A program made the position numbers and the translations under genes. The notes under the pieces are model-generated. The model did not search any database. It was not told the origin of the DNA and worked only from the letters and a program-made list of their open reading frames with translations. This document shows, piece after piece, positions 8,745 through 32,434 of a DNA stretch of 64,000 nucleotides; positions within the stretch are counted from its first letter, which is position 1, and each line of letters opens with the position of its first letter. Origin of the DNA: a plasmid; sequence record CP089609.1. One strand, written 5' to 3'.

Positions 8745-8764
8745 ATACACCCGTTCCGGTGTAT
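8745..8764. promoter_or_regulatory. Operator palindrome copy 1 (ATACACC-CGTTCC-GGTGTAT) overlapping a -10-like TATGGT
   Basis: Perfect 7-6-7 inverted repeat in the intergenic region between the divergent HTH gene (8507) and the 8858 operon. Confidence 0.6.
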
Positions 8765-8857
8765 GGTGAGAGTCGAGTATGGACTGGGCCGCAGCCAGGA
8801 AGTTTCAGGGATGAGTGGTGCACGAGCAGCGAGGACAGGCGCCGAGGGGACTGATCG

Positions 8858-9121
8858 ATGAGTGCAGCTTCGCTTGACGACCGGATCGTGCACACGGTGA
8901 TCGTGTACGCCGATGTCGGTGGCCTGGAGCACTCCGTGGTGATCGCGGACGAAGTCGACGGGCAGTTGCGTACCGGTCCAGAATTCGACGTGGACGGGGG
9001 CTGTGATCTGGTGGTGCCCGCCAATGCCGGAGCGTTCGGGAATGAGCTGCTAGTGTCGCTCAATTTTTCCGATCTGGCGGCATTTGTCCACGCCGTCGAA
9101 GCTCGCGAACAGTCTTCATAA
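8858..9121 (+). CDS. hypothetical protein
   Basis: 87 aa. GAGGGGA Shine-Dalgarno. First gene downstream of operator copy 1. Confidence 0.45.
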   Translation: MSAASLDDRIVHTVIVYADVGGLEHSVVIADEVDGQLRTGPEFDVDGGCDLVVPANAGAFGNELLVSLNFSDLAAFVHAVEAREQSS

Positions 9122-9159
9122 CAGTCCCAATGTTCATCTACCAGTGAGGAATACAGAGT

Positions 9160-9591
9160 ATGTCGCAGCACGACGATGGCGCCGATGACTCGGTCGTAGG
9201 AAATGCGCTGATGGAGGCGATCTTCCAGGAGTGGTACAGCGAGCATGGCGAGTTCGATGATTTGGAACTCACCAGCGCTGAGGAGTTGCGTGACTACATC
9301 AGCCGCGCGGTGCGGCGCTCTGGCGGTGCGGAGTTGATTGCGATCGAGCGTGCACGACAGGTTGTCGAGGAGGGCTACACGCTCGAACACGATCGTGAAC
9401 TTGGCGTTGGCCAGATCGCGCGAGCGGCGGAGGCCTACCTCACCAGGTTTCCTGAGCGGCATCCATGGCCGGCCGAGACGCTGAAGCTCTCCGGTGACAT
9501 CCTCCGAAATCTGGTCAAGGCTGGAGCACTGATCGCGGCCGCGATCGACGTGGAGCTGGCTCACAAAGCCGATCAGACTCGCACCACTTGA
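9160..9591 (+). CDS. hypothetical protein
   Basis: 143 aa. AGGAA Shine-Dalgarno upstream. Confidence 0.45.
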   Translation: MSQHDDGADDSVVGNALMEAIFQEWYSEHGEFDDLELTSAEELRDYISRAVRRSGGAELIAIERARQVVEEGYTLEHDRELGVGQIARAAEAYLTRFPERHPWPAETLKLSGDILRNLVKAGALIAAAIDVELAHKADQTRTT

Positions 9592-9678
9592 GAGCCACGG
9601 TGAGCGACACCGAGCAGCCAGCCGGAATTGTCTGTAGGCAACTGAAGTGTCGACACAAACCCAGAGGAGAAATGAAAA

Positions 9679-9990
9679 ATGAGTGATAGCACCACCGAAT
9701 CATTGGTCACCGTGCCAGCCGCCGCGGTGGCAGCACTCGACCAGCTAGAGCAGACGTGGCCCGGTGCGACCCAGCCGCAAGCGCGTGCGGTCATTGCCGC
9801 CGCAGTGATGACCGCCCTGGGGCTACGAACCGAGTACGCGATAGTCGACCACCATCAGGCCGGGAACGTTGCCGAGGCTGGGTTCGAGGACGCCGACGAA
9901 ACCGTTGAGGCGATGGCAGGCTACCCGATGGCCGCGTGGATGGCCGGCAGCCGACTGGTATCCGACTGGCGGAACCTCGAATCGACCTGA
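9679..9990 (+). CDS. hypothetical protein
   Basis: 103 aa. Strong Shine-Dalgarno (AGAGGAGAAATGAAAAATG). Confidence 0.5.
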   Translation: MSDSTTESLVTVPAAAVAALDQLEQTWPGATQPQARAVIAAAVMTALGLRTEYAIVDHHQAGNVAEAGFEDADETVEAMAGYPMAAWMAGSRLVSDWRNLEST

Positions 9991-10060
9991 CGAAGGACAA
10001 GCCATGACGGTTCAGCACATGGGTTCCACCACCGGAACCGCATAGCGACGACCCGACATA

Positions 10061-10105
10061 GGGAATTTCTTTCCGGCGCAAGGCCGCAACGCGACACTAT
10101 CGGCG
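10061..10105. promoter_or_regulatory. Repeated roughly 45-bp upstream element, copy A
   Basis: GGGAATTTCTTTCC + GCAAGGCCGCAACGCGA + CACTATCGGCG, immediately upstream of the 10122 gene. Confidence 0.45.
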
Positions 10106-10121
10106 TCTAGACAGGAGCAAG

Positions 10122-10367
10122 ATGAATCAACTGGCCGCGTTCCGTGACACCATCAGGCTGGCGAGGTTCCATGACATGCCAGAGCGCCCCGGCAATCCGC
10201 TTGGCCTAGCCCATTTGCGCTCGATGCTTGAGCGTGCGGAGTCGGGCGAGTTCTCGGATACGAAGATTGGTCGATGGCTCGGCTGGGCGCAATGCGCTGT
10301 GGTCGCCGCCGATATTGGCGTCGTGCTGGACGACATGAAGTACATCAACAAAGCCCACGCGGACTGA
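10122..10367 (+). CDS. hypothetical protein
   Basis: 81 aa. ACAGGAG Shine-Dalgarno. Confidence 0.45.
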   Translation: MNQLAAFRDTIRLARFHDMPERPGNPLGLAHLRSMLERAESGEFSDTKIGRWLGWAQCAVVAADIGVVLDDMKYINKAHAD

Positions 10368-10371
10368 AATA

Positions 10372-10416
10372 AGGAATTGCATTCCGATGCAAGGCCGCAA
10401 CGCGAGATCATCGGCG
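10372..10416. promoter_or_regulatory. Repeated roughly 45-bp upstream element, copy B
   Basis: AGGAATTGCATTCC (perfect GGAAT-N4-ATTCC palindrome) + GCAAGGCCGCAACGCGA + GATCATCGGCG, immediately upstream of the 10426 gene. Confidence 0.45.
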
Positions 10417-10425
10417 AGGAGAAAT

Positions 10426-10806
10426 ATGAACGAACTGTGGTGGTTTCTCATCGGGCTAACTGTCCTGCCCGCACTATTCGGTATCGGCGCTGGCTGGTCC
10501 TACCTGTATGGGCGGTTCGGTGAATGGTACACGCGGCCCGTCAATTTGGCGGGTAAGACGCTTGCCTATCGCCGATCACTTATTACTGGCACGGTCATCG
10601 GGCTACTGGATGCAACCCATGTTCGCGCCTGGAAGCTGCCACTTAACCGCGTGCTCATCATCAGGTCGAAAGCGCCGAGGGAATACGACTTCATCGGCAA
10701 GGAGTGGGTGGTAGTCGGTGACGACTTCAGCGTCACTAGGACTGTCATCGGTAAGGCGTTGGATGAACTCGGCTACCCCGAGGTAGAGCCGTCCGAGTCG
10801 GCATAA
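10426..10806 (+). CDS. hypothetical membrane protein
   Basis: Internal ATG with GAGGAGAAATATG Shine-Dalgarno. N-terminal transmembrane helix (WWFLIGLTVLPALFGIGAGW). Confidence 0.45.
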   Translation: MNELWWFLIGLTVLPALFGIGAGWSYLYGRFGEWYTRPVNLAGKTLAYRRSLITGTVIGLLDATHVRAWKLPLNRVLIIRSKAPREYDFIGKEWVVVGDDFSVTRTVIGKALDELGYPEVEPSESA

Positions 10807-10822
10807 GGGGGAAGAATCGGAC

Positions 10823-11035
10823 ATGAGTAGCGAGCATGCTGTACCAGTTCTATCGGTTCATTACATGGTGCAGCGCATCCGAGTCAATCGGCCGGTATAC
10901 GCGCTCTGCGCTGGGTGTGAGTGGACGGGATCATTTGATACTCCGGGAGATGCCCGCAAAAGGCACGCGGACCACATCCTAGACGTCCTCAGCGCCAACG
11001 GTCTCGCTGTAGTGGAGAGATGCCAGAAGGAGTAG
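10823..11035 (+). CDS. hypothetical small protein
   Basis: 70 aa. AAGGGGGAAG Shine-Dalgarno. CAGCEW motif. Confidence 0.4.
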   Translation: MSSEHAVPVLSVHYMVQRIRVNRPVYALCAGCEWTGSFDTPGDARKRHADHILDVLSANGLAVVERCQKE

Positions 11036-11037
11036 TG

Positions 11038-11226
11038 ATGCAGAGTCCTGCGTACCTCGACAACCGCACGTGCAAGGCGTGCGGCCGGTTCGACATCTTC
11101 TGCGAGTGCAAAGGCGCCAAAACCTTGGCCCGGTTACTGCCAGGCGTGCGGTGCGGAACTGAACCCGCCAAACGCCACGGCATGCCGCAGCTGCTACTCC
11201 AGCGACACCGACGAGACCTGACATAG
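11038..11226 (+). CDS. hypothetical small Cys-rich protein
   Basis: ATG at 11038 inside the TAGTGATG stop-start junction. C-x2-C...C-x-C spacing (CKACGRFDIFCEC). Confidence 0.3.
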   Translation: MQSPAYLDNRTCKACGRFDIFCECKGAKTLARLLPGVRCGTEPAKRHGMPQLLLQRHRRDLT

Positions 11227-11231
11227 GGACA

Positions 11232-11414
11232 ATGGGAATGAACTTCACAGCAGGTCAACGGATTCGCGTCCAGTTCCCGTTGCGGCCCGACCTCCATGTG
11301 GATCTCATCCGTCATCAGGACGGCTGGCGTCGCATCGACGGCGACGGTCCGCGGGTTCCCTACAAGGACCATGAAGTGTCCCGGTGCACCTGGGCGCCCA
11401 TCTCCGGAGGCTAA
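11232..11414 (+). CDS. hypothetical small protein
   Basis: 60 aa ORF. Confidence 0.3.
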   Translation: MGMNFTAGQRIRVQFPLRPDLHVDLIRHQDGWRRIDGDGPRVPYKDHEVSRCTWAPISGG

Positions 11415-11466
11415 GGAACACGTGCATGGAGTTGGATGAACTGTTCGACAGCGAGGGCGGTTTGGG

Positions 11467-12000
11467 GTGACGATCGACGCTGAGCGTTTCCTTCGTGATT
11501 TCTGCGAAATTATTGGCACACCAGCCGTTTCGGTGACGGTGGTGTGCTCCCCCACACCCTATGACGGGAATTTCCCGGTGGACCGGCTCACCGGGGAATC
11601 TCCTTTGGAGACGCACATCCGTGTCGAATTGGCCCATGGTGAACCGGTAGAGAGCTATGGGATCGATCTTGCCGAGGCCCTCACAGAGATGATGGCCGGT
11701 TTGGAGCTGCGGCGTCGTCCGCCGGAACCTGTGACCGCGGAGCGCCACACCGTGGCCGGTGTCGACGTCAGCGAAGCCGATTACCTGGCGGCCTACCCGG
11801 CATCGCACCGAGACACCGTCACGGACAGCGGGGCGTTCAGTCCGTACACCCATTCCGCGCGCGGCTGTGTTGGCGAGTACACCGCGCACTTGCTGGTCAA
11901 TGAGGGCACGACGGTTCCGCCGCTGTTGTATCTGTATGGGGCCGAAGGTCAGGAGGAGTATCACCTCTTCCCGCTGGTGCAGATGGCACCACCGCATTAG
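11467..12000 (+). CDS. hypothetical protein
   Basis: 177 aa, GTG start, protein-like composition. Confidence 0.4.
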   Translation: MTIDAERFLRDFCEIIGTPAVSVTVVCSPTPYDGNFPVDRLTGESPLETHIRVELAHGEPVESYGIDLAEALTEMMAGLELRRRPPEPVTAERHTVAGVDVSEADYLAAYPASHRDTVTDSGAFSPYTHSARGCVGEYTAHLLVNEGTTVPPLLYLYGAEGQEEYHLFPLVQMAPPH

Positions 12001-12351
12001 CGTCCGGTATCTGGTTTTGAGTACGAAGGGGGTTCATCATGGCTGGTTCTGGTTTCGGACACGGCAGGCAACATGGGAAAGCTGCTGGATCCCCGCGACG
12101 TGGTGAGCATGCTGGAGACACCAGGAGATGTCTTTGGGGCGATCGAGGAGATGTTCGGCATGATTTGGTTTCTGGCCGGACAGATCAATCCCGATGATCC
12201 GGCGAGCGTAGTGGAGCTGGCGGATAACAACTTCCGGCGGGGATCGAGCTGAGCCCGGGCGTCATGGACGACGTAGAACCTGACCCTGACGACGAATTCG
12301 ACGACTGATAGACCGGCGAAGCGATGCGGGCAGACGGGTAAGGGGGCGACG

Positions 12352-13041
12352 GTGAGAGTGGTGGTGTTGACCGGGGCCGGGATCAGCGCGGAGTCCGGGT
12401 TGTCCACGTTCCGCGGTCCGGAGGGTTTGTGGGAGGGGCACCGGGTCGTTGATGTCGCTACGCCGGAGGGCTTCGCGGCTGACCCGATGCTTGTTCAGCG
12501 GTTCTACAACGGTCTGCGGCGTCGACTGGGTGAGGTCGAGCCCAACGATGCGCATCGTGCGTTGGCTCGGCTTGAGCGGGCCCTCGGCCCGGGAATGATG
12601 CATCTGGTCACCCAGAACATCGACAATCTGCACCAGCGCGCCGGCAGTACTGCGGTCACGGCGATGCATGGCGAGTTGACGAAAATCCGTCATGTTCGAA
12701 CAGGTGAAGTGCTGCCGTGGGCCCACGATGTTGTCGAGACGGAGACGTCGTGGCGGCCGCATGTGGTGTGGTTTGGTGAGCGCACGATCGGTCTCGATGC
12801 GGCGATGGAGATGCTTTCTGCGGCAGATGTGTTCGTTGCGATCGGTACGTCGGGGACGGTGTATCCGGCCAATCAGTTCGCGATGGTTGCGAAGGCTTCC
12901 GGAGCGGCCACGGTCGAGATCAACCTTGAGCCCAGTGGTGTGGCGTTCGACCGCAGCTTGATCGGACCGGCCACCGAACAGGTTCCCCAGTTCGTCGATC
13001 TCCTCATTTCCCTGCTCGACAGCAGCGTGGACTCGTTGTGA
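12352..13041 (+). CDS. Sir2-family (sirtuin-like) NAD-binding protein lacking the zinc-ribbon module
   Basis: GAGISAESGLSTFRG...TQNIDNLH...HG...VVWFGE...AIGTSGTVYP motifs. Only about 20 residues with no Cys between the HG and VVWFGE motifs, where canonical CobB carries CxxC...CxxC. GTG start with AAGGGGG Shine-Dalgarno. Confidence 0.75.
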   Translation: MRVVVLTGAGISAESGLSTFRGPEGLWEGHRVVDVATPEGFAADPMLVQRFYNGLRRRLGEVEPNDAHRALARLERALGPGMMHLVTQNIDNLHQRAGSTAVTAMHGELTKIRHVRTGEVLPWAHDVVETETSWRPHVVWFGERTIGLDAAMEMLSAADVFVAIGTSGTVYPANQFAMVAKASGAATVEINLEPSGVAFDRSLIGPATEQVPQFVDLLISLLDSSVDSL

Positions 13042-13220
13042 TGTTCCCAGGCGATGCTTCAAGCCCGACGCTATATACTGGCCGGCAGAGCTGATCGCAC
13101 GGCTGACCCGAGTCGCACTGGCGCCTGTACCGCCAGCGGCATTCGAGGGCAGAGGTCCACCGGATCTGCGAAGTCTTCCCGTCACTACGTGACGGTGGGT
13201 ACAGGGCATCGTCAACGAAT

Positions 13221-14009
13221 GTGAACGGATTCGTCATGACCAAGAACTACGCCCGCAAGCGAGCAGCCCGCGCCTTGCAGCAGGCCGATCCCGAGCTCAC
13301 TCGCCCCGAAGCCACTCGCCTGGTTAAGAAGACCCAGGGTGCTACTGCCAACTCCTGGCGCCGCGGACAGATCCCCTGGATGCGTGCCGGCGCACGCAGG
13401 CAGGCTGGCTGCTACTTCTGTGGCCGGGCGACGGCGATTGTGTCGCTCGTCGATGAGGCGGCAGATACCGGCCGTATCTCGATGTACTGCGATAACAGCG
13501 ATTGCGCGGCGAGAGATTTCGAGGTGATCGTCGTCGACGACGGAACCGCTGCAACTCGCGGGCGCACAGATGTGCGCATCATGGCGCACTTCAACTCGAC
13601 CGCAGAAGGCCCAGCGCCGAGTTCCCGGTCTGACCAGGACTGGTCGGCGGGAATGCCGCCGCACGCCCGCACCTCAGGCACCGCCGCGTTGTGCCTGTTC
13701 TGCGGGCAGCAGTCCAACTGCCTGTCGGACAGTGATATCGCTGGCGATCATGGTCGTATCCGACTGCGCTGCACGAATTCCGGATGTGCCGTCTCCAGTG
13801 CCGAAGTGCTGCTCATCCGCGATGCGACACGCGAAACATCAACTCGGGGCGACGTCACTGCGCTCAGGAGTCTCGAGCCGGTGTATTTCGGGCGCCCAAA
13901 GCGTGGGCCAGGCGAATTGGATATCTTCACCGTTCAGGAACTCGAAGAGCATGCCAGCCAGTTCGACGTGCTGCGGCTGCGAACTTCGGCGCCAGTTCCT
14001 TGGGAGTGA
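13221..14009 (+). CDS. hypothetical protein with two tandem Cys4 zinc-ribbon-like modules
   Basis: CYFCGRATAIVSLVDEAADTGRISMYCDNSDC and CLFCGQQSNCLSDSDIAGDHGRIRLRCTNSGC are internal repeats. Start is GTG 13221 or ATG 13236. Confidence 0.45.
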   Translation: MNGFVMTKNYARKRAARALQQADPELTRPEATRLVKKTQGATANSWRRGQIPWMRAGARRQAGCYFCGRATAIVSLVDEAADTGRISMYCDNSDCAARDFEVIVVDDGTAATRGRTDVRIMAHFNSTAEGPAPSSRSDQDWSAGMPPHARTSGTAALCLFCGQQSNCLSDSDIAGDHGRIRLRCTNSGCAVSSAEVLLIRDATRETSTRGDVTALRSLEPVYFGRPKRGPGELDIFTVQELEEHASQFDVLRLRTSAPVPWE

Positions 14010-14298
14010 AGAGTGTGCGCGTGGTGTAGGGCAACCTCGCCGCGGCGTGTTGGCTTCCGATGCCGAGCCAGAGGTTTCACGCCGAAGTGGGTATCGCACT
14101 GCAGATCCGGATGGACGCACAGCAGTTCAGCACCAGCCGGCACCGGAATCTGGTTGCCGGCCGTTGGGCGGAGAATCTGGCGAATCAACGCCCGGGCCCC
14201 GGCAAGTCACCCATCGACCGGTCCAGGAATGCGGGCAGCTGGATGGATCACACGCTAGGCTGCGGAAAAGTAGTCACCGACTTGGAGGATTCTGGCGC

Positions 14299-14748
14299 GT
14301 GGGCAAAATAGTGACGGTCGAGTATGTCGACGATTTCGACGGCATTTCGGTTGATGCCGATACTGTTGACACAGTTGACTTTTCGTATCGCGGTCAAGAC
14401 TACTCGCTAGTTTTGACCACCGAGAACGGTGCCCAATTCGACAAGGATATGGCTCGATACATCACTGCCGCTAAGAAAGCTGCCGCCCGCGATGCCCGCG
14501 CGGCGCGCAAGCCGGCGCGGCCGGCTCCACGAAAGTCGGCCAAGGTAAAGGACGCGGTCAAAGCCAAGGGCGCGGCTAAGGTGGCGGCGCCACGACGGGC
14601 GGCGGGATCTCGGAAAGCGGCAACGGCGGCGTCGGGTCGTGAGCGAAGCCGGGCGATCCGTGAATGGGCTGCGGCCAATGGCCATAAGGTTTCTCAGCGT
14701 GGGCGGCTTCCCGCAGAAGTCGAGTCCGCCTACGATGCGGCGCACTGA
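14299..14748 (+). CDS. lsr2: Lsr2-family nucleoid-associated protein (H-NS-like xenogeneic silencer)
   Basis: The N-terminal VGKIVTVEYVDDFDG dimerisation motif and the C-terminal RSRAIREWAAANGHKVSQRGRLPAEVESAYDAA DNA-binding domain both match Lsr2. GTG start with GGAGGA upstream. Confidence 0.8.
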   Translation: MGKIVTVEYVDDFDGISVDADTVDTVDFSYRGQDYSLVLTTENGAQFDKDMARYITAAKKAAARDARAARKPARPAPRKSAKVKDAVKAKGAAKVAAPRRAAGSRKAATAASGRERSRAIREWAAANGHKVSQRGRLPAEVESAYDAAH

Positions 14749-14876
14749 CCAGCGCGGCTCGACGTTTGACGGGAACGCGATCACGCTGTTTTCGCTGGGC
14801 TGAGCGGATTGCAACATTCGGTGTAGAAATTTTACCGCCGATGTTGCATTCGGCCTTTATCGGCTGGAATGTTGGG

Positions 14877-14901
14877 GCCCCGGCCCACGAAGGGCCGGGG
14901 C
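14877..14901. terminator. GC-rich hairpin (GCCCCGGCCC-ACGAA-GGGCCGGGGC), probable intrinsic terminator between convergent genes
   Basis: 10-bp perfect stem with a 5-nt loop, between lsr2 and the convergent minus-strand genes. Additional palindromes nearby (TGCAACAT...ATGTTGCA, CTGGTC...GACCAG, CGATTGC-C-GCAATCG). Confidence 0.4.
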
Positions 14902-15096
14902 GGCAGGTGCCTTGTCTGGTCAGTCGGACCAGGGTGAGCGCCTACCAAGGAGCGTAGCGCGACTGACCGACAGATCGTTAGAGCCGGGTCGTGGGGGTGG
15001 CTGATACGATTGCCGCAATCGTTCGGCCCGCACCATGAACACTGTTCGTGGGAGCGGGCCGGATCTCTTTGGCGGACGCGCGCAGCGGTCACGCTC

Positions 15097-15390
15097 TCAG
15101 GCAGGTTTTGTGGTCGCTGCCTGTTCCTTGACGATCGACCAGAAGTCTGGGTCGGCGCTGGTGACGACTTCTCCTGATTCGCATCGCCAGGTGTCCAGAG
15201 GTGCTGCGCTGATCAGGGCGTCGGTGATCGCCCAGCATGTCTTGTCATCGTAGGTTGATCCGATCCGGGCAGCGACGTATCCGAAGCGGATGTCCATTCG
15301 GGTGAGATTGGTTTCTCTGATTCTCATGTGAGTCTCTCTGTTGTGTGCCACTCTGCGCGGTCGGCGCGCAGAGCGTGCTCGAAGAGTCAC
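15097..15390 (-). CDS. hypothetical protein
   Basis: ATGA overlap with the upstream gene at 15387-15390. An alternative start is ATG 15327. Confidence 0.35.
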   Translation of the reverse strand: MTLRARSARRPRRVAHNRETHMRIRETNLTRMDIRFGYVAARIGSTYDDKTCWAITDALISAAPLDTWRCESGEVVTSADPDFWSIVKEQAATTKPA

Positions 15391-16298
15391 TGGGTTGTGC
15401 GCCAGTAGTCCGGCAGCATTTGCATGGCGGCTTGGACGTCGGGATTGTCGAGTTGTTGAAGGATCTCGGTGTTGCTCGGCACGTTGGAGAATGACACGTC
15501 GTCGAGTTTTTGAATTCGGTTGCGGTACCAGCTGACCCAGTCAAAATCGTCGCCACCAGCTGCGAGACCAGCCAGGTATAGGGCCTCGATTTCGTCGCGT
15601 TCGCGGGCGTGGAAAGCGTCGGTGCTCGACCTCAGTGAAGTGTTCCGTGTGAGCGGGGTGGCCTCGTCGTCGGCGAGCTCGACGCTGCCGGTCATGTCGT
15701 CGCGGTCGCGGCGGGCGTCGAGGCGAAGGATCTCGAAGCTGTCGTGCACTTCGATGGCTGTCTGGTGCCAGGATTGGAGTGCGCGTCGCCAGTCGCCGTC
15801 TGCGACGAACGGTTCCCACGCGGCCGGCGGCATTGTGCGCAGTTCGTTGATGATCATTTCGTCGGCTTCGCGGATCTGCGGGTCTTCGGGTGGGCGTTCA
15901 TTGCGGTAGAACCAGTTGTCCACGCTCAGCGTTTCGCGCCATTGGGGTTTGAGGGTTCCGAGTCGGGCTGCCCGTAGCAGCGGTGTCCAGATCGAGTGCC
16001 GGCGGGTGGCGTAGTGGCTGGCCGGGAAGTCGTCGGGGACGGTGCCGGTGCGTTGTGCCCGCACATCGCGGGGAAGCTGCACCGCGTAGGTGTCTTCGTT
16101 GCCGTTCGAATCGGAGTGCGCCAGGTCGAACGCGCAGAGTTGTCCGACGCATTCCTCGATCTGCTCGCCGTCGATGGTCAGCATCTCGGCCCAGCTGTCG
16201 GGGGCCGGCAGTCGCCACCTGGACCACCGGTTGTCGCCCATCTCTTCAGTCGCCATTGTCTTTTCGACGCTCAACGCCATCCAGTGGATCCAAAGCAT
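15387..16298 (-). CDS. hypothetical protein
   Basis: 303 aa, Trp/Asp-rich, protein-like. Confidence 0.4.
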   Translation of the reverse strand: MLWIHWMALSVEKTMATEEMGDNRWSRWRLPAPDSWAEMLTIDGEQIEECVGQLCAFDLAHSDSNGNEDTYAVQLPRDVRAQRTGTVPDDFPASHYATRRHSIWTPLLRAARLGTLKPQWRETLSVDNWFYRNERPPEDPQIREADEMIINELRTMPPAAWEPFVADGDWRRALQSWHQTAIEVHDSFEILRLDARRDRDDMTGSVELADDEATPLTRNTSLRSSTDAFHARERDEIEALYLAGLAAGGDDFDWVSWYRNRIQKLDDVSFSNVPSNTEILQQLDNPDVQAAMQMLPDYWRTTQ

Positions 16299-16645
16299 GG
16301 GTGGGTCCGTCGAGTTCAGTTTCGACGAGTTGAGGCAGAAGTTTGGTGAGCGTGGCCCACTCGCCGCCTTCGAGAAGGACGCTGCCGGCGCCCAGGTAGG
16401 TGCCCGCCCGCTGGTCGGGCAGGACCACGATGTCTCCGGCCTGTGCGGTCATGGCGGTGATGGGGGTCAGGGTGGGTGCCGCTGTCATTTTGGCGGAAGA
16501 ACTGTGCACCGCCGGGGACTGGCACTTTCTGACCGGTCTTCACCTTGAGGCCCGCTCGGCTTGCTGCTGTAACTGTCGCGGCGACGACGCCGATTTTGCC
16601 GCGGCCGTCGCCTGTTGGGCCCTCGATTGAGATGTGTTCGGCCAT
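16246..16645 (-). pseudogene. possible frameshifted small gene
   Basis: A protein-like N-terminus (MAEHISIEGPTGDGRGKIGVVAATV...GGAQFF) runs into an Arg-rich noise frame. A second frame (16246..16509) continues in a protein-like way (TAAPTLTPITAMTAQAGDIVVLPDQ...). Confidence 0.25.
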
Positions 16646-16688
16646 GGCGTGTTCTCCTTTTCTGTTGTGCTAGTTATTGCTTCGGTTT

Positions 16689-17078
16689 CTATGCCGTTCG
16701 ATGAGGGCTGGCCGTTTGGGATCCGGGGATGCCGCAAATTGGGCAGCCTGGGTGGGTGGGTTTGAGTCCCGCTGCGGCGGTCCACCACTCCCAGCAGCTG
16801 GCCGGGATCAGGATGCTGTCATCGAGGATGGTGCCGTTGCTGTCGATCAGGGAGAGAACGGCGAACGGGAATACGGCGACTTTCTCTGGGGTGCTCATCG
16901 TGTGCCACTCGGGTAGATCGAAGATGGCGCCGCGGCGCTGCGCTGCCGATAGCAGCGCCTCGACAGCCGCGGGCCCTGTGGCTTCCATGTGCGCCCGGAA
17001 AGCGACTCCCTTGGCGTGCATGCACATCTGGAATGCTTCGACCGTTTCTATGGTGTCGGGCAGCTTGGTCATCTCCAT
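16689..17078 (-). CDS. hypothetical protein
   Basis: 129 aa ORF. Confidence 0.4.
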   Translation of the reverse strand: MEMTKLPDTIETVEAFQMCMHAKGVAFRAHMEATGPAAVEALLSAAQRRGAIFDLPEWHTMSTPEKVAVFPFAVLSLIDSNGTILDDSILIPASCWEWWTAAAGLKPTHPGCPICGIPGSQTASPHRTA

Positions 17079-17083
17079 GACTG

Positions 17084-17377
17084 TCAGCTCTTGCTGGTCG
17101 AGGCGGCGGCTTCGTAAAGGATGTGGGCGACGCCCGCTGGTGCGTGGTCGGCGTGCCAGTTCGCCCAGGTTCGCAGCTCGACGGTGTCGCCGGGCGGGTA
17201 GGTGGGGGTGGGTGGGTCGGCGTCAGGGTTCGCGGGATCCGCGTCGGTGTTCGCGTAGTAGTTGGCTGCCACGGACAGTGCGGCGGCCACACTCTGGTGA
17301 CCCATGTCACGATGGGTCGCTGCCCACCGGTTCAGTTGCTCGGTGTCGATCACAACTTTCACTCGCAGCTGCGCCAT
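17084..17377 (-). CDS. hypothetical protein
   Basis: 97 aa. GGGGGAG Shine-Dalgarno. Confidence 0.45.
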   Translation of the reverse strand: MAQLRVKVVIDTEQLNRWAATHRDMGHQSVAAALSVAANYYANTDADPANPDADPPTPTYPPGDTVELRTWANWHADHAPAGVAHILYEAAASTSKS

Positions 17378-17405
17378 AACGAATTCTCCCCCTGTTGCCG
17401 TTGTT

Positions 17406-17876
17406 TCACGGTGATGTGTCCTTGTCTGCCATCGTTTGGAGCGCCCGTCGGTGGAGTACTTCCTTGGTGTCGTCGATGAGCGGCTTGTTGCGGATGAGTG
17501 GCGCCAGGGCGTCGAGGACGTCGAGTTGGGCGGCGGCCAGGGCTAGTTCGACGTCGAATTCGGCGTGAGCAAGTGAGCGGAAGTCGGCGATCATCACGCG
17601 TTCTGCGCCTTGGGCGTGGGCTTGTCTGAGCATGTCGAGCCATCGGATCTTGCGCATGAGATCGCTGTTGTGGTTGTCGCACAGCACGGCTGGGGAGTGT
17701 TTGCGTGTGATGCGGTCGGTGGCCTCGGTTGCGGCCGCTGCCGGGTCAAGTTTTGGAGCCTTGTTCGAGCCGTTGGATATGCAGTCTGGTGCGGGTATGT
17801 CAGCGAGTATCTGCTTGGTCTTGGCGCGGTGATGCAGCTCGTTGGCTTGTTGCTGCCAGAACTGGCTCCATGTCAT
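17406..17876 (-). CDS. hypothetical protein
   Basis: 156 aa ORF. Confidence 0.4.
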   Translation of the reverse strand: MTWSQFWQQQANELHHRAKTKQILADIPAPDCISNGSNKAPKLDPAAAATEATDRITRKHSPAVLCDNHNSDLMRKIRWLDMLRQAHAQGAERVMIADFRSLAHAEFDVELALAAAQLDVLDALAPLIRNKPLIDDTKEVLHRRALQTMADKDTSP

Positions 17877-17891
17877 GGCGGTTTCCTGGGG

Positions 17892-18122
17892 TCAGGTGTT
17901 TCGGAATCGGCGGACTTGGTCGGGGTGGTTTTCGACCCATGCGGTGCCGGCTTCGGTGGCGATGTAGCTGCCGTCGTCGCTTCCGCCTCCGTACTGGATG
18001 AGGCCGGCGCGGCATAGCGCGGTGATCGTGTTCTGCCGCACCCAGCTGGTGTCTTCACCGTGGTAGGCGGCCAGCAGCGCCCAGATCTTCGCGTCGCTCA
18101 TGCGTGCCGTCGGCGTGGTCAT
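17892..18122 (-). CDS. hypothetical small protein
   Basis: Internal ATG at 18122 forms an ATGA overlap with the upstream gene stop (18119). Confidence 0.35.
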   Translation of the reverse strand: MTTPTARMSDAKIWALLAAYHGEDTSWVRQNTITALCRAGLIQYGGGSDDGSYIATEAGTAWVENHPDQVRRFRNT

Positions 18123-18622: not shown

Positions 18623-18695
18623 CAGTCGCCTCCCCCTGGATGGTAGTGGGTGTGTTGTGGCGTGATCACTCCCGTCACCGACATCGGTGCCGGTG

Positions 18696-18896
18696 TCATG
18701 GGAGAACGCCGCCGTTGAGGATGCGCACCTGGTCCTCGTGTTCGCGCTCGGTCAGTTCGTTGGCCATGTTGTCCCACAGTTCGGTGGAGTCGTCGATTTG
18801 CGTCATAGCCGTTTCGATGCGCTCGGATGGCCAGCGTCGCCAGCCGCGGGTGTCGAGGTTGTTCGCGTTGTCGCTGTCTGATTCTGGGTGGCCCAT
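18696..18896 (-). CDS. hypothetical small protein
   Basis: Internal ATG. Downstream of the 18917 gene. Confidence 0.25.
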   Translation of the reverse strand: MGHPESDSDNANNLDTRGWRRWPSERIETAMTQIDDSTELWDNMANELTEREHEDQVRILNGGVLP

Positions 18897-18916
18897 TGTT
18901 GTTGCCTGCCTTGCGT

Positions 18917-19204: not shown

Positions 19205-19328
19205 GCTCCTGTTACGGCCTGTGCGCACCTGTTTTTCCTGGCTAGCTGCTTGTCGTTACGGTACTGGCCCGCTGTGACGGTATCCAGGGGATTCGGTTGG
19301 GGTCCGGTGTAGGTCCACCCCATTGTTT

Positions 19329-19348: not shown

Positions 19349-19359
19349 TGTCTTGGTCC

Positions 19360-19710: not shown

Positions 19711-19715
19711 CGACG

Positions 19716-23933: not shown

Positions 23934-24180
23934 GCCGCTGCGGCAATGGTGTGCCCAGACGCTACGAGTGGCGCTGGCTAAGGAGGGCATTTCCCGGCTC
24001 AAGCTTCATCAACGTTTGGTAGAGCGATTTGGCGATCGAGCACCGTCGCAAACGACGGTTTATCGGCTGATGTCGGGCGAGGCGCTGCCCCGTACTGACC
24101 ATCTGATCATGATCGCCGAGGTGTTGGATATTTCACCGCGGTGCCTGGTGCCGGACGATCATCAGCTGCTCACCGGATAG
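23896..24180 (+). CDS. XRE-family HTH transcriptional regulator
   Basis: GGGAGGA Shine-Dalgarno. TVYRLMSGEALPRTDHLIMIAEVLDISPRCL is HTH-like. Confidence 0.5.
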   Translation: MTDKDHAHVGPNEPLRQWCAQTLRVALAKEGISRLKLHQRLVERFGDRAPSQTTVYRLMSGEALPRTDHLIMIAEVLDISPRCLVPDDHQLLTG

Positions 24181-25455: not shown

Positions 25456-27045
25456 CTATCGGTCCGGTGGGCCTGCGGCGTCGTGCGCCCTCGGCGTTGC
25501 GGTGACACGCGAGCGAGAAGGCTTCGGTCGCCGTGTGGCTGGCCTGGTCGGCTGGCCGTCGCGCGTCCTCTGTCGCGTGACGGGTCCGACAGGCTTGCGC
25601 CGGGCGCGGTGGCCGAGGCTTCTCCTTCCGATCACAACCGCGGCGGCGCGGTGGCCGTCGATGGTCGGGTCGGAAGTCTGCAGTGCGGGTAGCCAGTGCT
25701 GGCGTCCCCATCGGGAGGTGTAGGCAGGGTCGACAGCGATCACCGACAGCCCAGCGGTGGCTGCCATTGCGGCGAGCCGATTGCGGAACGTGGCGGTCGG
25801 AATGCCCGCGACGGTGCGGCGGAACCGTTTGCCTCGCCGGCCCCGGCCCATAGTTTCGCGGCCAGTGTTGCGGGCCTCGTCGAATCCGAGGTTCTCGATG
25901 CTGATCGACGCGCAGCCATGCTGGGCGGCCAAGTGGAGGAGCCGGGTGATGACGTGGCGGACTTGGGCGTCGCGGCGGGCGGTGCAACCGGTGAGGGTGA
26001 AGTCGAGCCGTTGCGGAAGGCCTATGGGGTTGCCGTGTGGATCAACGACAGCGGCGTCGACGTGTCCGTCGTTGAGATCCACGCCCAGCGTGCACTGGGT
26101 GCGCAGCGTGGCCAGCGCGACGGTGGGGGCCTGGTCGTAGCCCCAGGATGCGTCGAGGTACCAGCGTCCCCGCGGGTCGCGGTGTAGGTCGTACCGTACG
26201 GCCCGGTCGGCGGTGATCCGGTCAGCCCACTCGCTACCACGGTGAGTGCTCAGCGATACCGGCGCGGTAATCGTCAGCCGGGTCCCATGCTCAGCCACCA
26301 AGGCTCCGGGCACCTTGAGCATGAGTACGCCCTCATCGGTGACACGGATGGTCTCGTTGCCAAAACGCTTGCCGGACTCCCCATCAGCGGTCAGGAACAT
26401 CCGCTCCTCAGTCCAGCGCTTCTCCCACTGAGCAAGAGTCATCGACGTCTCGCCAAGATTCTGACGGTTGCGCCACAACCGGCCACCACCAACAACGATG
26501 CGGGGCCGCCCCTGCTCCTGACGGGCCCAGGCTTGCGCCAGACGCGCTTCTAGGTGGGCCTTGCGGCGCGACTTGCCAAACCGCTCTGCCTCGGTCGCAT
26601 AGCCCCGAACCGGCTTGGTGCGGGGACGATTCGCCTCGCGCGACGTGTCACCCACAGGTACGGCTAGCCGGGCGCTCAAGGTCGAGACCGCGGCGGTCAA
26701 CGAGTCGACGTGAGCGTTCAGCCCGCGCATGCCCAAGTCGTAGGAGTCGATAGCGGTGCGGGTGATCGCTCCGGCCCACCGCGATGACGTGCTCGCGGTG
26801 AGGGCCTGCTTACGCACCTGCCGCCACACGCCCTGGTCTTTCTTCGTGGCTGCCCCCAGCGCGATCCGATCAACCAAAGTGGCCCGGTACTGCTCACCTA
26901 AGAACACGCCGATCTGTTCGAGCACCGCCTCTTCCCGCGGTGTGAGATGGACCCGGGTGCGGGTCCGCACACCTTTCGGGGGCGCGACAACGAACGGGTC
27001 GGCGATCGGCCGCAGCCCGGACGTGTTGCGTGCCAGAGCATTCAC
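25456..27045 (-). CDS. tnpB: IS607/IS605-family TnpB (OrfB, RuvC-like)
   Basis: 529 aa with ISIENLGF, DPAYTSRW and a C-terminal Arg-rich tail. Confidence 0.8.
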   Translation of the reverse strand: MNALARNTSGLRPIADPFVVAPPKGVRTRTRVHLTPREEAVLEQIGVFLGEQYRATLVDRIALGAATKKDQGVWRQVRKQALTASTSSRWAGAITRTAIDSYDLGMRGLNAHVDSLTAAVSTLSARLAVPVGDTSREANRPRTKPVRGYATEAERFGKSRRKAHLEARLAQAWARQEQGRPRIVVGGGRLWRNRQNLGETSMTLAQWEKRWTEERMFLTADGESGKRFGNETIRVTDEGVLMLKVPGALVAEHGTRLTITAPVSLSTHRGSEWADRITADRAVRYDLHRDPRGRWYLDASWGYDQAPTVALATLRTQCTLGVDLNDGHVDAAVVDPHGNPIGLPQRLDFTLTGCTARRDAQVRHVITRLLHLAAQHGCASISIENLGFDEARNTGRETMGRGRRGKRFRRTVAGIPTATFRNRLAAMAATAGLSVIAVDPAYTSRWGRQHWLPALQTSDPTIDGHRAAAVVIGRRSLGHRARRKPVGPVTRQRTRDGQPTRPATRRPKPSRSRVTATPRAHDAAGPPDR

Positions 27046-27632
27046 GCCGACGTGCCACCATCAGACCCGGCCGCACACTCCAACGCCCGCTTGGCTCGAT
27101 TCTTGGCTGAGCGGCGGCCGTACAGTCGGGCACAGAACGACGTCAGCACCTCGGTGATGTCGCGCACCAGATCGTCGTCGACTTCGCCGTCATCGAGCAC
27201 CACCAGACGACGACCGGACGCCGACAGCGCCGCCTCCACAAGTTCGGTATTCATCCGCCCGAGCCGGTCGCGGTGCTCCACGACCACGACCGTAACCTCG
27301 GGGTCCGACAACAGTCGGCGCGCCTTTGCCCGCGCACCGTTCATCCCCGAACCCACCTCGGCCTCACTGCGGACAACACGATGCCCCGCTTGCACAGCCC
27401 ACGCGTTGAGCCTGGCTGTCTGCCGTGCCAGATCGCTCTTCTGGTCGTGTGAGGAGACCCGGGCGTAGAGCCCAACGCCCTCGGTTGGCGTCGCCGCGAC
27501 GCCTTCAGGGTTCACCAGGATCAGCCGCGGCCCTACCCGTTGCGCAGGAACGGGCAACGTCCCCTCGCGGAACATCTTGTACGCCGTCTGCGGGTGAATC
27601 CCCTGCGCACGCGCCCAATCCTTCAAATTCAC
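27042..27632 (-). CDS. tnpA: IS607-family serine recombinase TnpA
   Basis: N-terminal MerR-like HTH (MNLKDWARAQGIHPQTAYKMFREG) and the resolvase motif YARVSSHDQ. GTG start. Confidence 0.8.
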   Translation of the reverse strand: MNLKDWARAQGIHPQTAYKMFREGTLPVPAQRVGPRLILVNPEGVAATPTEGVGLYARVSSHDQKSDLARQTARLNAWAVQAGHRVVRSEAEVGSGMNGARAKARRLLSDPEVTVVVVEHRDRLGRMNTELVEAALSASGRRLVVLDDGEVDDDLVRDITEVLTSFCARLYGRRSAKNRAKRALECAAGSDGGTSA

Positions 27633-30261: not shown

Positions 30262-30753
30262 TCATGGTGTGATCGTCCTTGGCAGGGGTGACAGGCCAGG
30301 GGTGGCGGGTGTCTGGGAGGTCTCGGCGGTGCGGTGCATTTCGTGGATGATGTGTTCGGGTGCGAGGCGTCCGCCGTTGGCGGCTCGGCGGCGGTTGCGT
30401 TCGAGGCATTCGGCCAGCGGGGTGTCGATGGTGATGATCTGGTAGGTGAGGTTGTGGCGGTGGGCGAGATCTGTCCAGACCGCCAAGTGTTCGGGTTCGA
30501 GGTTGGTGTCGTCGATGACGATGGATTTGCCGTTGAGTAGGGCGGTTTCGGCGAGGCTGATCTCGTGCGTGGTGACGATGTCTTCCTGTTCTTGGGTCAG
30601 TTCGCTGTATTGACCGAACAGGTGATACCGGAGTGTGTCGCGGTTGATGATTTCCCGGTTGCCGGGGTCGGCTTGGCGCCACGTGTTCGCCCAGGTGGTC
30701 TTACCGGCCGCTGGTAAGCCTGTGAGAATGAGAACCGTTGGGTGGTCGGTCAT
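30262..30753 (-). CDS. P-loop NTPase/kinase (AAA_33 / zeta-toxin-like fold)
   Basis: Walker A LTGLPAAGKTTWA at the N-terminus. AGGAGC Shine-Dalgarno. ATGA overlap with the upstream gene. Confidence 0.55.
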   Translation of the reverse strand: MTDHPTVLILTGLPAAGKTTWANTWRQADPGNREIINRDTLRYHLFGQYSELTQEQEDIVTTHEISLAETALLNGKSIVIDDTNLEPEHLAVWTDLAHRHNLTYQIITIDTPLAECLERNRRRAANGGRLAPEHIIHEMHRTAETSQTPATPGLSPLPRTITP

Positions 30754-31037
30754 TCCGATGCTCCTGATGCTGCGCCGGTGAGGTTGGTGAGTTCTGGGCG
30801 GAGATTGTCTCGGGGCTCCCATTCCTGGGTTTGGGGGTTGTATTGGCCGATGGTGATGATGGGTTCTCCGGCCTCGTTGAGGTAGACGAAGATCGATCCG
30901 TAGAGCTGGCCGTCGGTGCTCAGGTAGACGTTGCCGCTATATTCCGATTCGCCGTATTCGTCAGGTTTGCCGAGGTCCACGGTCCACGGTGTTCCTCCGG
31001 CGTCGAGGGTGAGTGTGGATTTGGGGTGGCCGCTCAT
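30750..31037 (-). CDS. hypothetical protein; first gene of the leftward operon, probably leaderless
   Basis: The ATG at 31037 lies 7 nt downstream of TATAGT, which overlaps operator copy 3. Confidence 0.4.
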   Translation of the reverse strand: MSGHPKSTLTLDAGGTPWTVDLGKPDEYGESEYSGNVYLSTDGQLYGSIFVYLNEAGEPIITIGQYNPQTQEWEPRDNLRPELTNLTGAASGASE

Positions 31038-31047
31038 AACAATTACT

Positions 31048-31067
31048 ATACACCTTAGTAGGTGTAT
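31048..31067. promoter_or_regulatory. Operator palindrome copy 3 (ATACACC-TTAGTA-GGTGTAT)
   Basis: Perfect 7-6-7 inverted repeat in the divergent intergenic region. Its right half provides TATAGT on the minus strand. Confidence 0.6.
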
Positions 31068-31188
31068 AGATGCGATATTTGACCGTTTCACCTACGTCCT
31101 GATGGTGCGCCGTACACCAGCCCGGGCCTGGGATACTTGGTCGAGCGGGCGACGGGCACACCGCGCCAGGCCAGGAGGGGATCGGATC

Positions 31189-31578
31189 GTGAATCGAACG
31201 CAACACGCTGCGGCCATAGCGGCTACGACACTGTGCACCCTTACGGTCGGGGGATGCTCGACGCCGGAGCCCGCCAACGCACAGGGGTCAACACCGGCGG
31301 GCCCCAGTATCGAGTCACCGGCAGCCCCGCTCAGCAAGTTGACCGCCATAGGCCGGCACTGCTTTGGTTCTGCTGCCGATGTCGCCGCAGCGGCAGCGCG
31401 GATCGCGGCAGACACTGAGCGCCAGGCCCGGCAGATTGTGGATGCGCGGCGCATCGCCGATGCCGGAGGACCACTTCCCCAGGTCGGGTTCGACACGATC
31501 TTTGTGGTGTCCGATCCCGACACCGACCACTGCGTCGAGGTCACAGAGACCCGGTACATTCCGCCGCCGGCTCGCTGA
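31189..31578 (+). CDS. putative lipoprotein
   Basis: GTG with AGGAGGGG Shine-Dalgarno. Signal peptide with lipobox LTVGGC. Confidence 0.5.
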   Translation: MNRTQHAAAIAATTLCTLTVGGCSTPEPANAQGSTPAGPSIESPAAPLSKLTAIGRHCFGSAADVAAAAARIAADTERQARQIVDARRIADAGGPLPQVGFDTIFVVSDPDTDHCVEVTETRYIPPPAR

Positions 31579-31596
31579 AACCCGCAGGTGCGGGGT

Positions 31597-31864
31597 GAGT
31601 GGCGCGTTTGCGGATGTGACCGTAGCGTCCTGGGATATGTACCGACCTGAGCTTCACATCGCGGACATGCGCGCACAGCTGGACAAGATCCGGGGACATT
31701 GCGCCATGGACGACCATCTGGAGTTGTCGGCCGAGCTTGATCGGCTTGCGGCCCTGGATCCCAGCACTCGCATGGGTCAGCGCGAGCTCGTCGGGAAACC
31801 AGGCCTGGAGTTGATGCGCCGGATGCAGATCGCTGTGAAGCGGCACGCGGGAAGGCTCAGCTGA
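31597..31864 (+). CDS. hypothetical protein
   Basis: GTG start. An alternative start is ATG 31639. Confidence 0.3.
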
Positions 31865-31964
31865 GCCTCGCCCGCTACCAGCAATTTGTTGCGTTTGGGT
31901 GTGGCACAACACTGTGGCCGCTCATAGCGTGGGATCACACGGCAGTCAGACCGAAGGAATCCGT

Positions 31965-32231
31965 ATGTCGCACGACACCATTGGGCAGTACATCGACAAT
32001 GTTCTCGCTGTTGCTCGCAGGTTGGCGTTGCTGCCGGCGATCGCCGTCGACGCCGACGCCTCCGGGCGGGTCGCTGGGACGATCGAGGACCTCGAAGGCC
32101 TCCGTCGCGGAGTCGACGCCGTCCATGACGATTCTCCCGCCGCGAAGGTGATGACCGTTCAGCGCGTGGATGACACGTTGGCCGAGTTGCAGAGCGTGCT
32201 CGCCGCCCGAGGTGGAACAGCGAGTTCCTGA
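31965..32231 (+). CDS. hypothetical protein
   Basis: AAGGAA Shine-Dalgarno. 88 aa. Confidence 0.4.
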   Translation: MSHDTIGQYIDNVLAVARRLALLPAIAVDADASGRVAGTIEDLEGLRRGVDAVHDDSPAAKVMTVQRVDDTLAELQSVLAARGGTASS

Positions 32232-32414
32232 CCTCCCAGGGCGCCCCTGGGGCACGCTTTGCCGCATTCTGGGCTCTTCGGGCACTTCAAAGGATCTCCT
32301 CCGGTGATGACCGGTTCTGTCGGGACCCGGGCATATACCTATGGGCATGTTGACATTTTCGCCCGCGGCAGCCGCTCGGCGCTCTGGCGCCAACGTCTGG
32401 ACATCCTTGGCCAT

Positions 32415-32434
32415 ATACACCTTGATAGGTGTAT
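32415..32434. promoter_or_regulatory. Operator palindrome copy 4 (ATACACC-TTGATA-GGTGTAT) overlapping TATTGT
   Basis: Perfect 7-6-7 inverted repeat, 50 bp upstream of the 32487 gene. Confidence 0.6.

Follow-up and report, generated by a model that had tools for sequence, protein, structure and literature searches.

Four copies of the 20-bp palindrome ATACACC-N6-GGTGTAT lie in the plasmid sequence CP089609.1, within the stretch of 64,000 nucleotides analysed here (the window), which by its predicted genes is a mycobacterial ESX plasmid-like element with the gene content of the pRAW type. We consider it likely that these palindromes are the operators of one dimeric helix-turn-helix (HTH) repressor, which would occlude four SigA-type promoters and so govern one plasmid regulon. 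A candidate for this repressor, a 94-amino-acid Cro/CI-like protein of the XRE fold (HTH-94), is encoded at the end of one of the four putative transcription units.

The exact palindrome occurs four times in the window (Table 1) and in none of 100 dinucleotide-preserving shuffles, and no other repeated palindrome with 7-bp arms is present in the window. If up to three mismatches are allowed, four additional weak matches appear (at 7251, 7413, 12845 and 49780), with about one expected, and all of these are located within coding sequence. The four exact copies are all intergenic, for which the chance probability is about 0.0015 given that some 20% of the window is non-coding by our own gene calls; each copy stands at the head of an operon called from the genes, and three of them separate divergent genes.

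The placement relative to promoter elements is equally regular. At all four sites the final TAT of the palindrome provides the first three bases of a -10-like hexamer, and the hexamers read from the opposite side end in G or A instead of T, so that each site offers a single good TANNNT, which faces the adjacent gene. TANNNT is the preferred -10 motif of mycobacterial SigA, and leaderless mRNAs account for about a quarter of mycobacterial transcripts (PMC6448022). When the window and its relatives are taken together, TATnGT is found in 22 of 24 instances, always facing the gene, and a T directly precedes the palindrome in 21 of the 24. The start codons at 19360 and 31037 follow the hexamer after only 7-8 nt and this spacing is conserved, so leaderless mRNAs are predicted for both promoters, with that of 19360 possibly being near-leaderless. 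The 8-nt gap between the -10 element and the GTG at site 2 is identical in the window and in two related contigs (L194 and L197; L numbers designate the loci compared). At site 3, the relatives L012, L014 and L194, which have ATG, and L015, which has GTG, all place the start codon 10 nt from the palindrome and hence 7 nt after the -10; the intervening bases differ among these relatives and the spacing is fixed.

The initial annotation had reported the four copies, their intergenic position at operon heads, their overlap with -10 elements and two promoters with leaderless or very short-leader geometry, and our analysis bears out each of these points, the overlap for -10-like hexamers and the last as a prediction. 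Its statement that a TAT(G/T/A)GT hexamer follows the right half-site has to be amended: this is so at sites 1, 2 and 4, while at site 3 the plus strand reads TATAGA and TATAGT is found on the minus strand.

Conservation in related elements indicates that the palindrome is recognized by a protein. Relatives were recovered as contigs encoding homologues of an XRE-family protein of the window (XRE-171, encoded at 7992-8507; 79-98% identical), of its FtsK-like ATPase (81-95%) and of HTH-94 (58-99%), and the exact palindrome is present in every contig that covers the orthologous intergenic region. Site 1 is exact in L002-L009, with spacers CGTTCC, GACTTC and CATTCC (in gene orientation) and with TATGGT or TATTAT as the -10 element. 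Site 2 has orthologues at L194:5640 and L197:2129 (spacers TGTTCG and TATTCG), site 3 at L012:7652, L014:1203, L015:7620 and L194:15792, and site 4 at L012:9018, L013:827, L014:2629, L015:9030 and L194:17224; the spacers of the last two groups differ as well, and all orthologues of site 4 keep the TATTGT hexamer. When the more divergent orthologues were compared pairwise (seven comparisons), all 98 of 98 half-site bases agreed, as opposed to 45% identity in the 6-nt spacer and 47% in the 20 nt upstream; the three bases that complete the -10 element are identical at 19 of 21 positions, and the next 20 nt downstream at 67%. Across all 24 instances the 14 half-site bases are invariant and the spacer is variable, orthologous sites on contigs with protein identities of 58-98% to the window being included, and no compensatory substitution is seen in the arms. 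Because the arms are invariant, the spacer varies and compensatory changes are absent, a protein appears to read the DNA sequence here rather than an RNA hairpin. The expectation that the palindrome would recur in related elements thus holds, with exact copies at orthologous promoters that behave as a protein-recognized operator should.

If the -10 hexamer is placed at -12 to -7, the palindrome would span about -29 to -10 of a SigA-type promoter. As the last TAT of the operator is also the first half of the -10 hexamer, a bound dimer would keep sigma region 2 off this element and block RNA polymerase, which amounts to steric repression. One protein could in this way switch four units together, those beginning at 8858, 19360 and 32487 and the leftward one from 31037, and the 32487 unit so controlled would hold the FtsK/TraB-like ATPase upstream of eccB/eccC. 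The repressor would most likely be HTH-94, encoded by the element itself; as its gene is the last of the site-2 unit, HTH-94 would feed back negatively on that unit, and it would additionally be expressed from a conserved promoter of its own.

The assignment of HTH-94 draws on its fold, its family and its company. It matches Pfam HTH_3 and PHROG 4583, 'transcriptional repressor' (E 1e-6), its profile matches being confined to HTH_3/HTH_26 and PHROG 4583, and it has no match in NCBIfam. An AlphaFold2 model (predicted local distance difference test score, pLDDT, 83) has the five-helix XRE fold, and the top folds in PDB are HTH_3 regulators, the N-terminal domain of TP901-1 CI, C.AhdI, C.BclI, ClgR and BldD. 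The family is small, with seven clusters among 5.8e9 proteins, and homologues are absent from PLSDB plasmids, GenBank phages, IMG/VR and JGI metagenomes; its recognition helix, SQT(T/S)(V/T)YRL, is conserved throughout. In L015, the plasmid relative that diverges most, a homologue of 58% identity whose recognition helix is similar accompanies conserved operators. On scaffold55 of M. hubeiense (L139), a 76%-identical homologue is located 3 kb from two ATACACC operators and adjoins an 83%-identical homologue of a 75-amino-acid protein of the window; no other protein of that stretch is clearly homologous to one from the window. The 75-residue protein, for which a four-helix model was obtained that has no significant fold match in PDB, is a possible partner of HTH-94, as co-repressor or anti-repressor. 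On this evidence from sequence comparison and modelled structure, we regard the proposal that HTH-94 is the repressor binding the ATACACC operators as having an even chance of being correct.

Several observations weigh against the proposed regulon or against HTH-94 as its regulator. The conserved module upstream of HTH-94, which was delimited in a six-locus alignment, lacks the ATACACC palindrome, and direct classical autoregulation of HTH-94 is for this reason not evident; in L015 the HTH-94 promoter has TATGGT followed by ATG after 7 nt, again a leaderless geometry. In the 17.5 kb around an 80%-identical homologue encoded on L195, a metagenomic contig from NCBI, there is no ATACACC site (about 7 kb upstream and 10 kb downstream), and this is why the assignment is not put above even. 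The co-occurrence of HTH-94 and operators in M. hubeiense could reflect the common descent of a mobile module and not a functional pair, and the true regulator could be encoded outside the window, which covers part of the replicon. One copy in L015 (L015:3571) is flanked by convergent genes, and a -10-like hexamer is missing there. A scan for E. coli-type -35/-10 promoters returned none at any of the four sites, and since this consensus scan gave no -35 match, the promoters are called from the -10 element. Mycobacterial promoters usually have a weak -35 or one without consensus, and the failed scan is accordingly not counted against them. What is observed is the motif with its positions and conservation, together with its co-occurrence with HTH-94; binding, repression, the transcription starts, the operon extents, the identity of the repressor and an inducing signal are inferred.

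The palindromes could also be repressor operators with a binder other than HTH-94 or XRE-171, be it a protein encoded outside the window, the 75-residue protein, the second HTH protein of the window (47200-47619) or a regulator encoded by the host. Such a binder is possible, although we think it rather unlikely. The partial coverage of the replicon, the HTH-94 homologue without sites in L195 and the operator-free promoter of HTH-94 itself all speak for it, as does the absence of HTH-94 from the 8 kb covered at each of the operator-bearing loci L103 and L176. However, the 75-residue protein has no match to a DNA-binding fold, and the HTH protein at 47200-47619 lacks a nearby ATACACC site, is related only distantly to plasmid proteins and has no counterpart in the M. 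hubeiense stretches. A host regulator would make the motif common in mycobacterial chromosomes; three mycobacterial contigs are among the 120 matches listed in the genome scan described below, all of them mobile-element-like, which argues weakly against this option. The initial annotation had favoured XRE-171, the nearest HTH gene and divergent from site 1, and in its close homologues site 1 is indeed always within 0.3-1.4 kb. This choice now seems improbable. The promoter-like module of XRE-171 on the minus strand consists of TTGGTC (8626-8621), 18 nt that include a perfect palindrome, and TAGCGT (8602-8597), and the palindrome between these -35-like and -10-like hexamers, GCCCTAAGTTAGGGC (8604-8618), is of a different type, GCCCTAA-N-TTAGGGC. 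It is located upstream of every XRE homologue recovered, exactly in 10 loci and with one mismatch in L006. The HTH and the recognition helix are invariant across the XRE family, also in the homologue encoded by the M. dioxanotrophicus plasmid NZ_CP020812.1 (57% identity). That plasmid keeps GCCCTAACTTAGGGC followed by the TANNNT hexamer TAGGAT, and over its complete 106 kb there is no ATACACC site at up to two mismatches. Given the identical recognition helix and a plasmid devoid of ATACACC, XRE-171 most probably autoregulates through GCCCTAA-N-TTAGGGC, and ATACACC would belong to another protein. Moreover, a GC-rich hairpin stands between the XRE-171 promoter region and site 1, other genes are inserted between the XRE gene and site 1 in L006, L007 and L008, and XRE-171 has no homologue in the operator-bearing stretches of M. 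hubeiense or of the Mycobacterium metagenome-assembled genome nzgw94.

Readings that dispense with a repressor fare worse. An activator site, used from the spacer by a MerR-like protein or by a dual regulator resembling C proteins, could be suspected from the location of the palindrome within the -35/-10 spacer, where MerR-type activators bind, and from the likeness of the HTH-94 fold to C.AhdI and C.BclI, controllers which both activate and repress. Nevertheless, the palindrome overlaps the -10 itself, the implied spacer has an ordinary length of about 17 nt, as against the 19-20 nt typical of MerR promoters, the TATnGT hexamers already resemble competent SigA -10 elements, and the MerR family is absent from the proteins scanned except for the N-terminal region of the IS607-type resolvase; an activator site is therefore very improbable. 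Sites of recombination, cassette exchange or partition (attC/attI-like, parS/KorB-like or hairpin ends of IS200/IS605) come to mind because the same 20-bp core adjoins intI in betaproteobacterial integrons, because a gene cassette beside site 1 in L006, L008 and L009 brings a degenerate second copy, and because the window contains IS605 and IS607 elements. There is, however, no integron integrase among the window proteins scanned, and neither flanking AACGT...ACGTTAGGC arms nor a GTTRRRY core is found at the sites, in contrast to the betaproteobacterial look-alikes, which have IntI and ...ACGTTAGGC arms. Nor do the sites flank the insertion sequences, the IS605 insertion being at about 5848-7621, and in every relative they keep their orthologous places at promoters, strictly tied in orientation to the -10 element and the start codon, which leaves this explanation with hardly any probability. 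The smallest probability of all attaches to RNA hairpins acting as terminators or as stabilizing 5' stem-loops. A stem of 7-10 bp is possible (-8 to -13 kcal/mol), and a consensus scan flagged site 3, but no other, as terminator-like on the minus strand. Yet the sequence-invariant arms lack compensatory changes, the stems are AT-rich for a genome of 63% GC and weak, a U-tract is missing at three of the four sites and, given the -10 assignment, the palindromes are upstream of the start and would not be transcribed from these promoters. Further candidates were dismissed: a SigF-type promoter with a GGGTAT-like -10 cannot explain the conserved and symmetric left half-site, and the NrdR, CRP and CsoR boxes seem not to fit in half-site order, spacing or single-copy arrangement.

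Table 1. Positions of the putative operator copies, -10-like hexamers, predicted transcription units and genes discussed in the text (window numbering).
Feature	Coordinates	Strand	Description
Operator copy 1 (site 1)	8745-8764		ATACACC-CGTTCC-GGTGTAT, exact match; between divergent XRE gene (start 8507, leftward) and 87-aa gene (8858, rightward)
Operator copy 2 (site 2)	19329-19348		ATACACC-CGTTCA-GGTGTAT, exact match; between divergent leftward gene (ATG 19204, AGGAG ribosome-binding site) and GTG 19360
Operator copy 3 (site 3)	31048-31067		ATACACC-TTAGTA-GGTGTAT, exact match; between divergent ATG 31037 (leftward) and lipoprotein gene at 31189
Operator copy 4 (site 4)	32415-32434		ATACACC-TTGATA-GGTGTAT, exact match; upstream of ATG 32487, after a co-directional gene; heads 32487 operon
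-10-like hexamer, site 1	8762-8767	plus	TATGGT; leader to ATG 8858 about 84 nt
-10-like hexamer, site 2	19346-19351	plus	TATTGT; GTG 19360 after 8 nt
-10-like hexamer, site 3	31050-31045	minus	TATAGT; ATG 31037 after 7 nt
-10-like hexamer, site 4	32432-32437	plus	TATTGT; leader to ATG 32487 about 43 nt
Site-1 unit	8858-14748	plus	87-aa gene, several small open reading frames, SIR2 (12352-13041), Lsr2 (14299-14748); gene calls, Pfam
Site-2 unit	19360-24180	plus	116-aa protein, several (mostly small) membrane proteins, open reading frame 22503-23933, 94-aa HTH gene last
Site-3 unit, first two genes	30262-31037	minus	95-aa protein and AAA_33/zeta-toxin-like kinase; Pfam
Site-4 unit	32487-37676	plus	304-aa membrane protein, FtsK/TraB-like ATPase, DUF6745 (35230-36519), small open reading frames
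HTH-94	23896-24180	plus	94-aa Cro/CI-like (XRE-fold) protein; last gene of site-2 unit
HTH-94 upstream module	23780-23838	plus	CTATGTTACGAAATGCA..TTGCGCTATATGGT, TATGGT 23833-23838; six-locus alignment
75-aa helical protein	31637-31864	plus	co-occurs with HTH-94; four-helix AlphaFold2 model, pLDDT 82
FtsK/TraB-like ATPase	33398-34765		
EccA	44795-46675	minus	
EccB	37983-39575		
EccC	39640-43965		
EccD	53804-55342		
EccE	57216-58628		

The extents of the four units are inferred from gene calls and gaps. As proposed earlier, the palindrome heads all four of them, and the sites are conserved in relatives. Gene order supports the grouping in each case: it is the same in L002-L009 for the site-1 unit, in L194, L197 and L012 for the tightly packed or overlapping reading frames of the site-2 unit, in L012, L014, L015 and L194 for the site-3 unit, which probably extends further left (DUF6283 and others in relatives), and in L012-L015 for the site-4 unit. 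After the latter, a gap of 306 bp precedes the co-directional eccB/eccC (37983-43965). Pfam, NCBIfam and PHROG give no match for the leading gene of any of the four units; these genes were considered as DNA-binders and set aside, several looking too acidic when their translations were judged by eye. The reading frame 22503-23933 (476 amino acids) extends about 55 codons beyond its orthologues of 421-425 amino acids (e.g., L012:1065-2330) and overlaps the start of HTH-94. The extra codons coincide with the conserved, non-coding HTH-94 promoter module, and the sequence they would encode, rich in Cys and Trp, is implausible; the extension probably reflects a lost stop codon, a frameshift or an over-called reading frame.

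Some features next to the operators deserve mention in their own right. An inverted repeat (GGGCGA, 9 nt, TCGCCC; 32439-32459) is located where the site-4 transcript is predicted to start; it is only partly conserved in relatives and could be a stabilizing 5' stem-loop. The GC-rich hairpin that separates site 1 from the XRE promoter (8675-8718; GGCTGCCGG, 26 nt, CCGGCAGCC) is conserved and shows a compensatory change in L007 (GGCTGCCGC...GCGGCAGCC); it could be a bidirectional terminator, an insulator or a structured RNA. The second operator-promoter module, that of the XRE gene, was also recorded at L001:17075-17095. In some relatives a small gene cassette is found between site 1 and the XRE promoter (L006:9433, L008:9060, L009:9747, L010:265), bringing with it a degenerate palindrome, ATGCACC-N6-CGTGTAT (two mismatches), 15 nt upstream of a gene of 71-73 amino acids, and the module 'palindrome + atgcc..gaaaggaaaatggctgcc' is duplicated at both ends of the cassette insertion. 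The plasmid-borne Lsr2 of the site-1 unit is a nucleoid-associated xenogeneic silencer, and Lsr2 is again found near operator copies in L015 and nzgw94; in the former, the most divergent relative, copies at L015:2568 (two mismatches) and L015:3571 (one mismatch) flank the Lsr2 gene.

Outside the plasmid family, the motif was sought as TATACACC-N6-GGTGTAT-NNT in a scan of one genome per species, and the mycobacterial and betaproteobacterial figures given here are those among the 120 matches listed, which are dominated by betaproteobacterial integron sites. Three mycobacterial contigs carry it. On M. hubeiense scaffold55 there are two operators 47 bp apart, each with a TATAGT -10 element, that face divergent genes, one of which is RadC-like (ATG at L139 position 556). 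On M. hubeiense scaffold24 (L103:631, 1540) and in nzgw94 (L176:749, 1649) the operator is found before a conserved two-gene module encoding a secreted HNH/DUF1524-like nuclease-type protein and a protein of 155-177 amino acids; PE/PPE-like, ParB-like and Lsr2 genes are near the operator region of nzgw94. As it is present in scaffold24 and nzgw94, the operator is not confined to the plasmid family of the window. At least some 60 other genome-contig loci (L075-L193; e.g., L186:3225), from many Betaproteobacteria and some Gammaproteobacteria, hold the 20-bp core inside a longer palindrome, AACGTgaAaTATACACC-N6-GGTGTATAtTtcACGTTAGGC, which ends in a GTTAGGC core. In Vogesella this palindrome is located directly beside an integron integrase gene, on account of which these sites look like attI-region elements, and they are unrelated to the mycobacterial operator. 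A scan of viral sequences gave 56 stretches from about 30 distinct families, mostly of low GC content and mostly with single copies, a count close to what chance would give by a rough estimate, and revealed no link to mycobacteriophages.

It can be speculated that the operator, HTH-94 and the 75-residue gene form a portable regulatory module across otherwise unrelated mycobacterial mobile elements, although we hold this to be unlikely. Its members may include the present ESX plasmid family, a RadC/AbiEii-like island of M. hubeiense and the nuclease cassettes of scaffold24 and nzgw94. If this were true, a repressor encoded by one element could shut down promoters with the operator on other elements in the same cell, so that plasmids and islands would affect one another in a manner akin to immunity or exclusion, and promoter-operator cassettes might be duplicated and recruited before newly acquired genes, as the insertion beside site 1 in L006 and L008 suggests.

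Comparison with known systems places the proposed circuit close to KorA of plasmid RP4/RK2. KorA is a 101-amino-acid dimeric HTH repressor with a single type of short symmetric operator, present at seven promoters, and it jointly controls the operons by which this IncP-1 plasmid is replicated, transferred and maintained (PMC2665229). With one palindrome heading several backbone operons of a conjugative-type plasmid, KorA is the closest functional analogue. It differs in its proteobacterial host, in its unrelated 12-bp operator (GTTTAGCTAAAC), in its protein family, and in that it cooperates with KorB/ParB and is part of an autoregulated central control operon; no KorB/ParB-like partner was detected among the window proteins. 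The only NCBIfam match to TrbA comes from the HTH protein at 47200-47619, not from HTH-94, and reaches 17 bits compared with a cutoff of 96. By its profile matches, HTH-94 is not a member of the KorA, TrbA or KorB families.

The phage repressors Cro and CI (lambda, 434, TP901-1 CI) resemble the present system in their five-helix XRE fold and in a palindromic operator that has invariant half-sites and overlaps core promoter elements, here a -10-like hexamer, and the lambda half-site TATCACC is itself similar to ATACACC. The operator described here, however, has a 7-6-7 layout of 20 bp and not 17 bp, and mostly single operators are found per promoter instead of cooperative tandem arrays, the divergent pair spaced by 47 bp being seen only in M. 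hubeiense; besides, the window has no phage genes and HTH-94 no homologue in the phage collection or IMG/VR. In Streptomyces, KorA of pIJ101 and TraR of pSN22 (kil-kor) are plasmid-encoded GntR-family repressors of an operon for an FtsK/TraB-like translocase. The likeness is that of an actinobacterial conjugative element, site 4 heading the operon that contains the FtsK-like gene, but the GntR repressors use other operators, the present element also has an ESX/type VII locus, and no GntR protein is among the window proteins scanned. The stoperators of Cluster A mycobacteriophages likewise are short repeated repressor sites for coordinated silencing in a mycobacterial mobile element. They are asymmetric, 13-14 bp long, present in 20-30 copies, oriented with transcription and mostly located in transcribed regions, where they block elongation. 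By contrast, the sites described here are perfect palindromes, number four in 64 kb and are all situated on promoter -10 elements. A search of the literature for this motif, or for the regulation of transfer, type VII secretion or establishment in ESX plasmids, found nothing relevant. The kind of mechanism proposed is a classical one; what is new is the operator, the candidate repressor family and the regulon in this plasmid family.

The value of the finding lies in a 20-bp operator, four target promoters, two of which are predicted to be leaderless, and a 94-residue candidate repressor; with these defined, the control circuit of the plasmid family becomes directly testable. The predicted regulon takes in a plasmid-borne Lsr2 and a SIR2 protein, and mycobacterial genetics might employ the operator and its repressor as a compact orthogonal switch. 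What is gained is one more instance and a tool, not a new principle, and it would be useful to the specialist rather than surprising.

The element itself has a GC content of 63% and a complete-looking ESX/type VII secretion locus, in which the Ecc proteins are accompanied by PE, PPE, two WXG100 proteins, EspG and a ParA-domain protein; toxin-antitoxin pairs and IS605-, IS607- and IS21-type elements are also encoded in the window. ESX-P plasmids of the pRAW type are reported to depend on type IV-like as well as type VII secretion for their transfer (PMC4173767). The present element shares EccA-E, PE/PPE, the WXG100 pair, EspG and the FtsK-like ATPase with them but differs in sequence, as the closest plasmid EccB in PLSDB is merely 41% identical and there is no nucleotide match besides IS21. 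Megablast of positions 8000-20000 against the phage and plasmid collections gave no match, the IS21 element was the sole match for 44000-64000, and exact-protein look-ups of the XRE protein and EccB of the window returned no record. Close relatives are known only as contigs assembled from public sequencing runs, and the plasmid family is so far absent from the curated plasmid collection.

Mobile elements have left further traces in the window. An IS200/IS605 element (Y1 transposase 7132-7545, TnpB/OrfB 5975-7141), which is absent from L002, splits a gene of 195 amino acids directly downstream of the XRE gene, and the 144-amino-acid reading frame at 7591-8025 is its truncated remnant. An IS607-type element (25456-27632), composed of a serine recombinase/resolvase (27042-27632) and a TnpB-like protein of 529 amino acids (25456-27045), is located between the site-2 and site-3 units. 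A palindrome of another kind, GTACAGA-TTT-TCTGTAC (2746-2762), is found just upstream of a Phd/YefM antitoxin gene (2421-2711, minus strand) and is probably the own operator of this toxin-antitoxin module.

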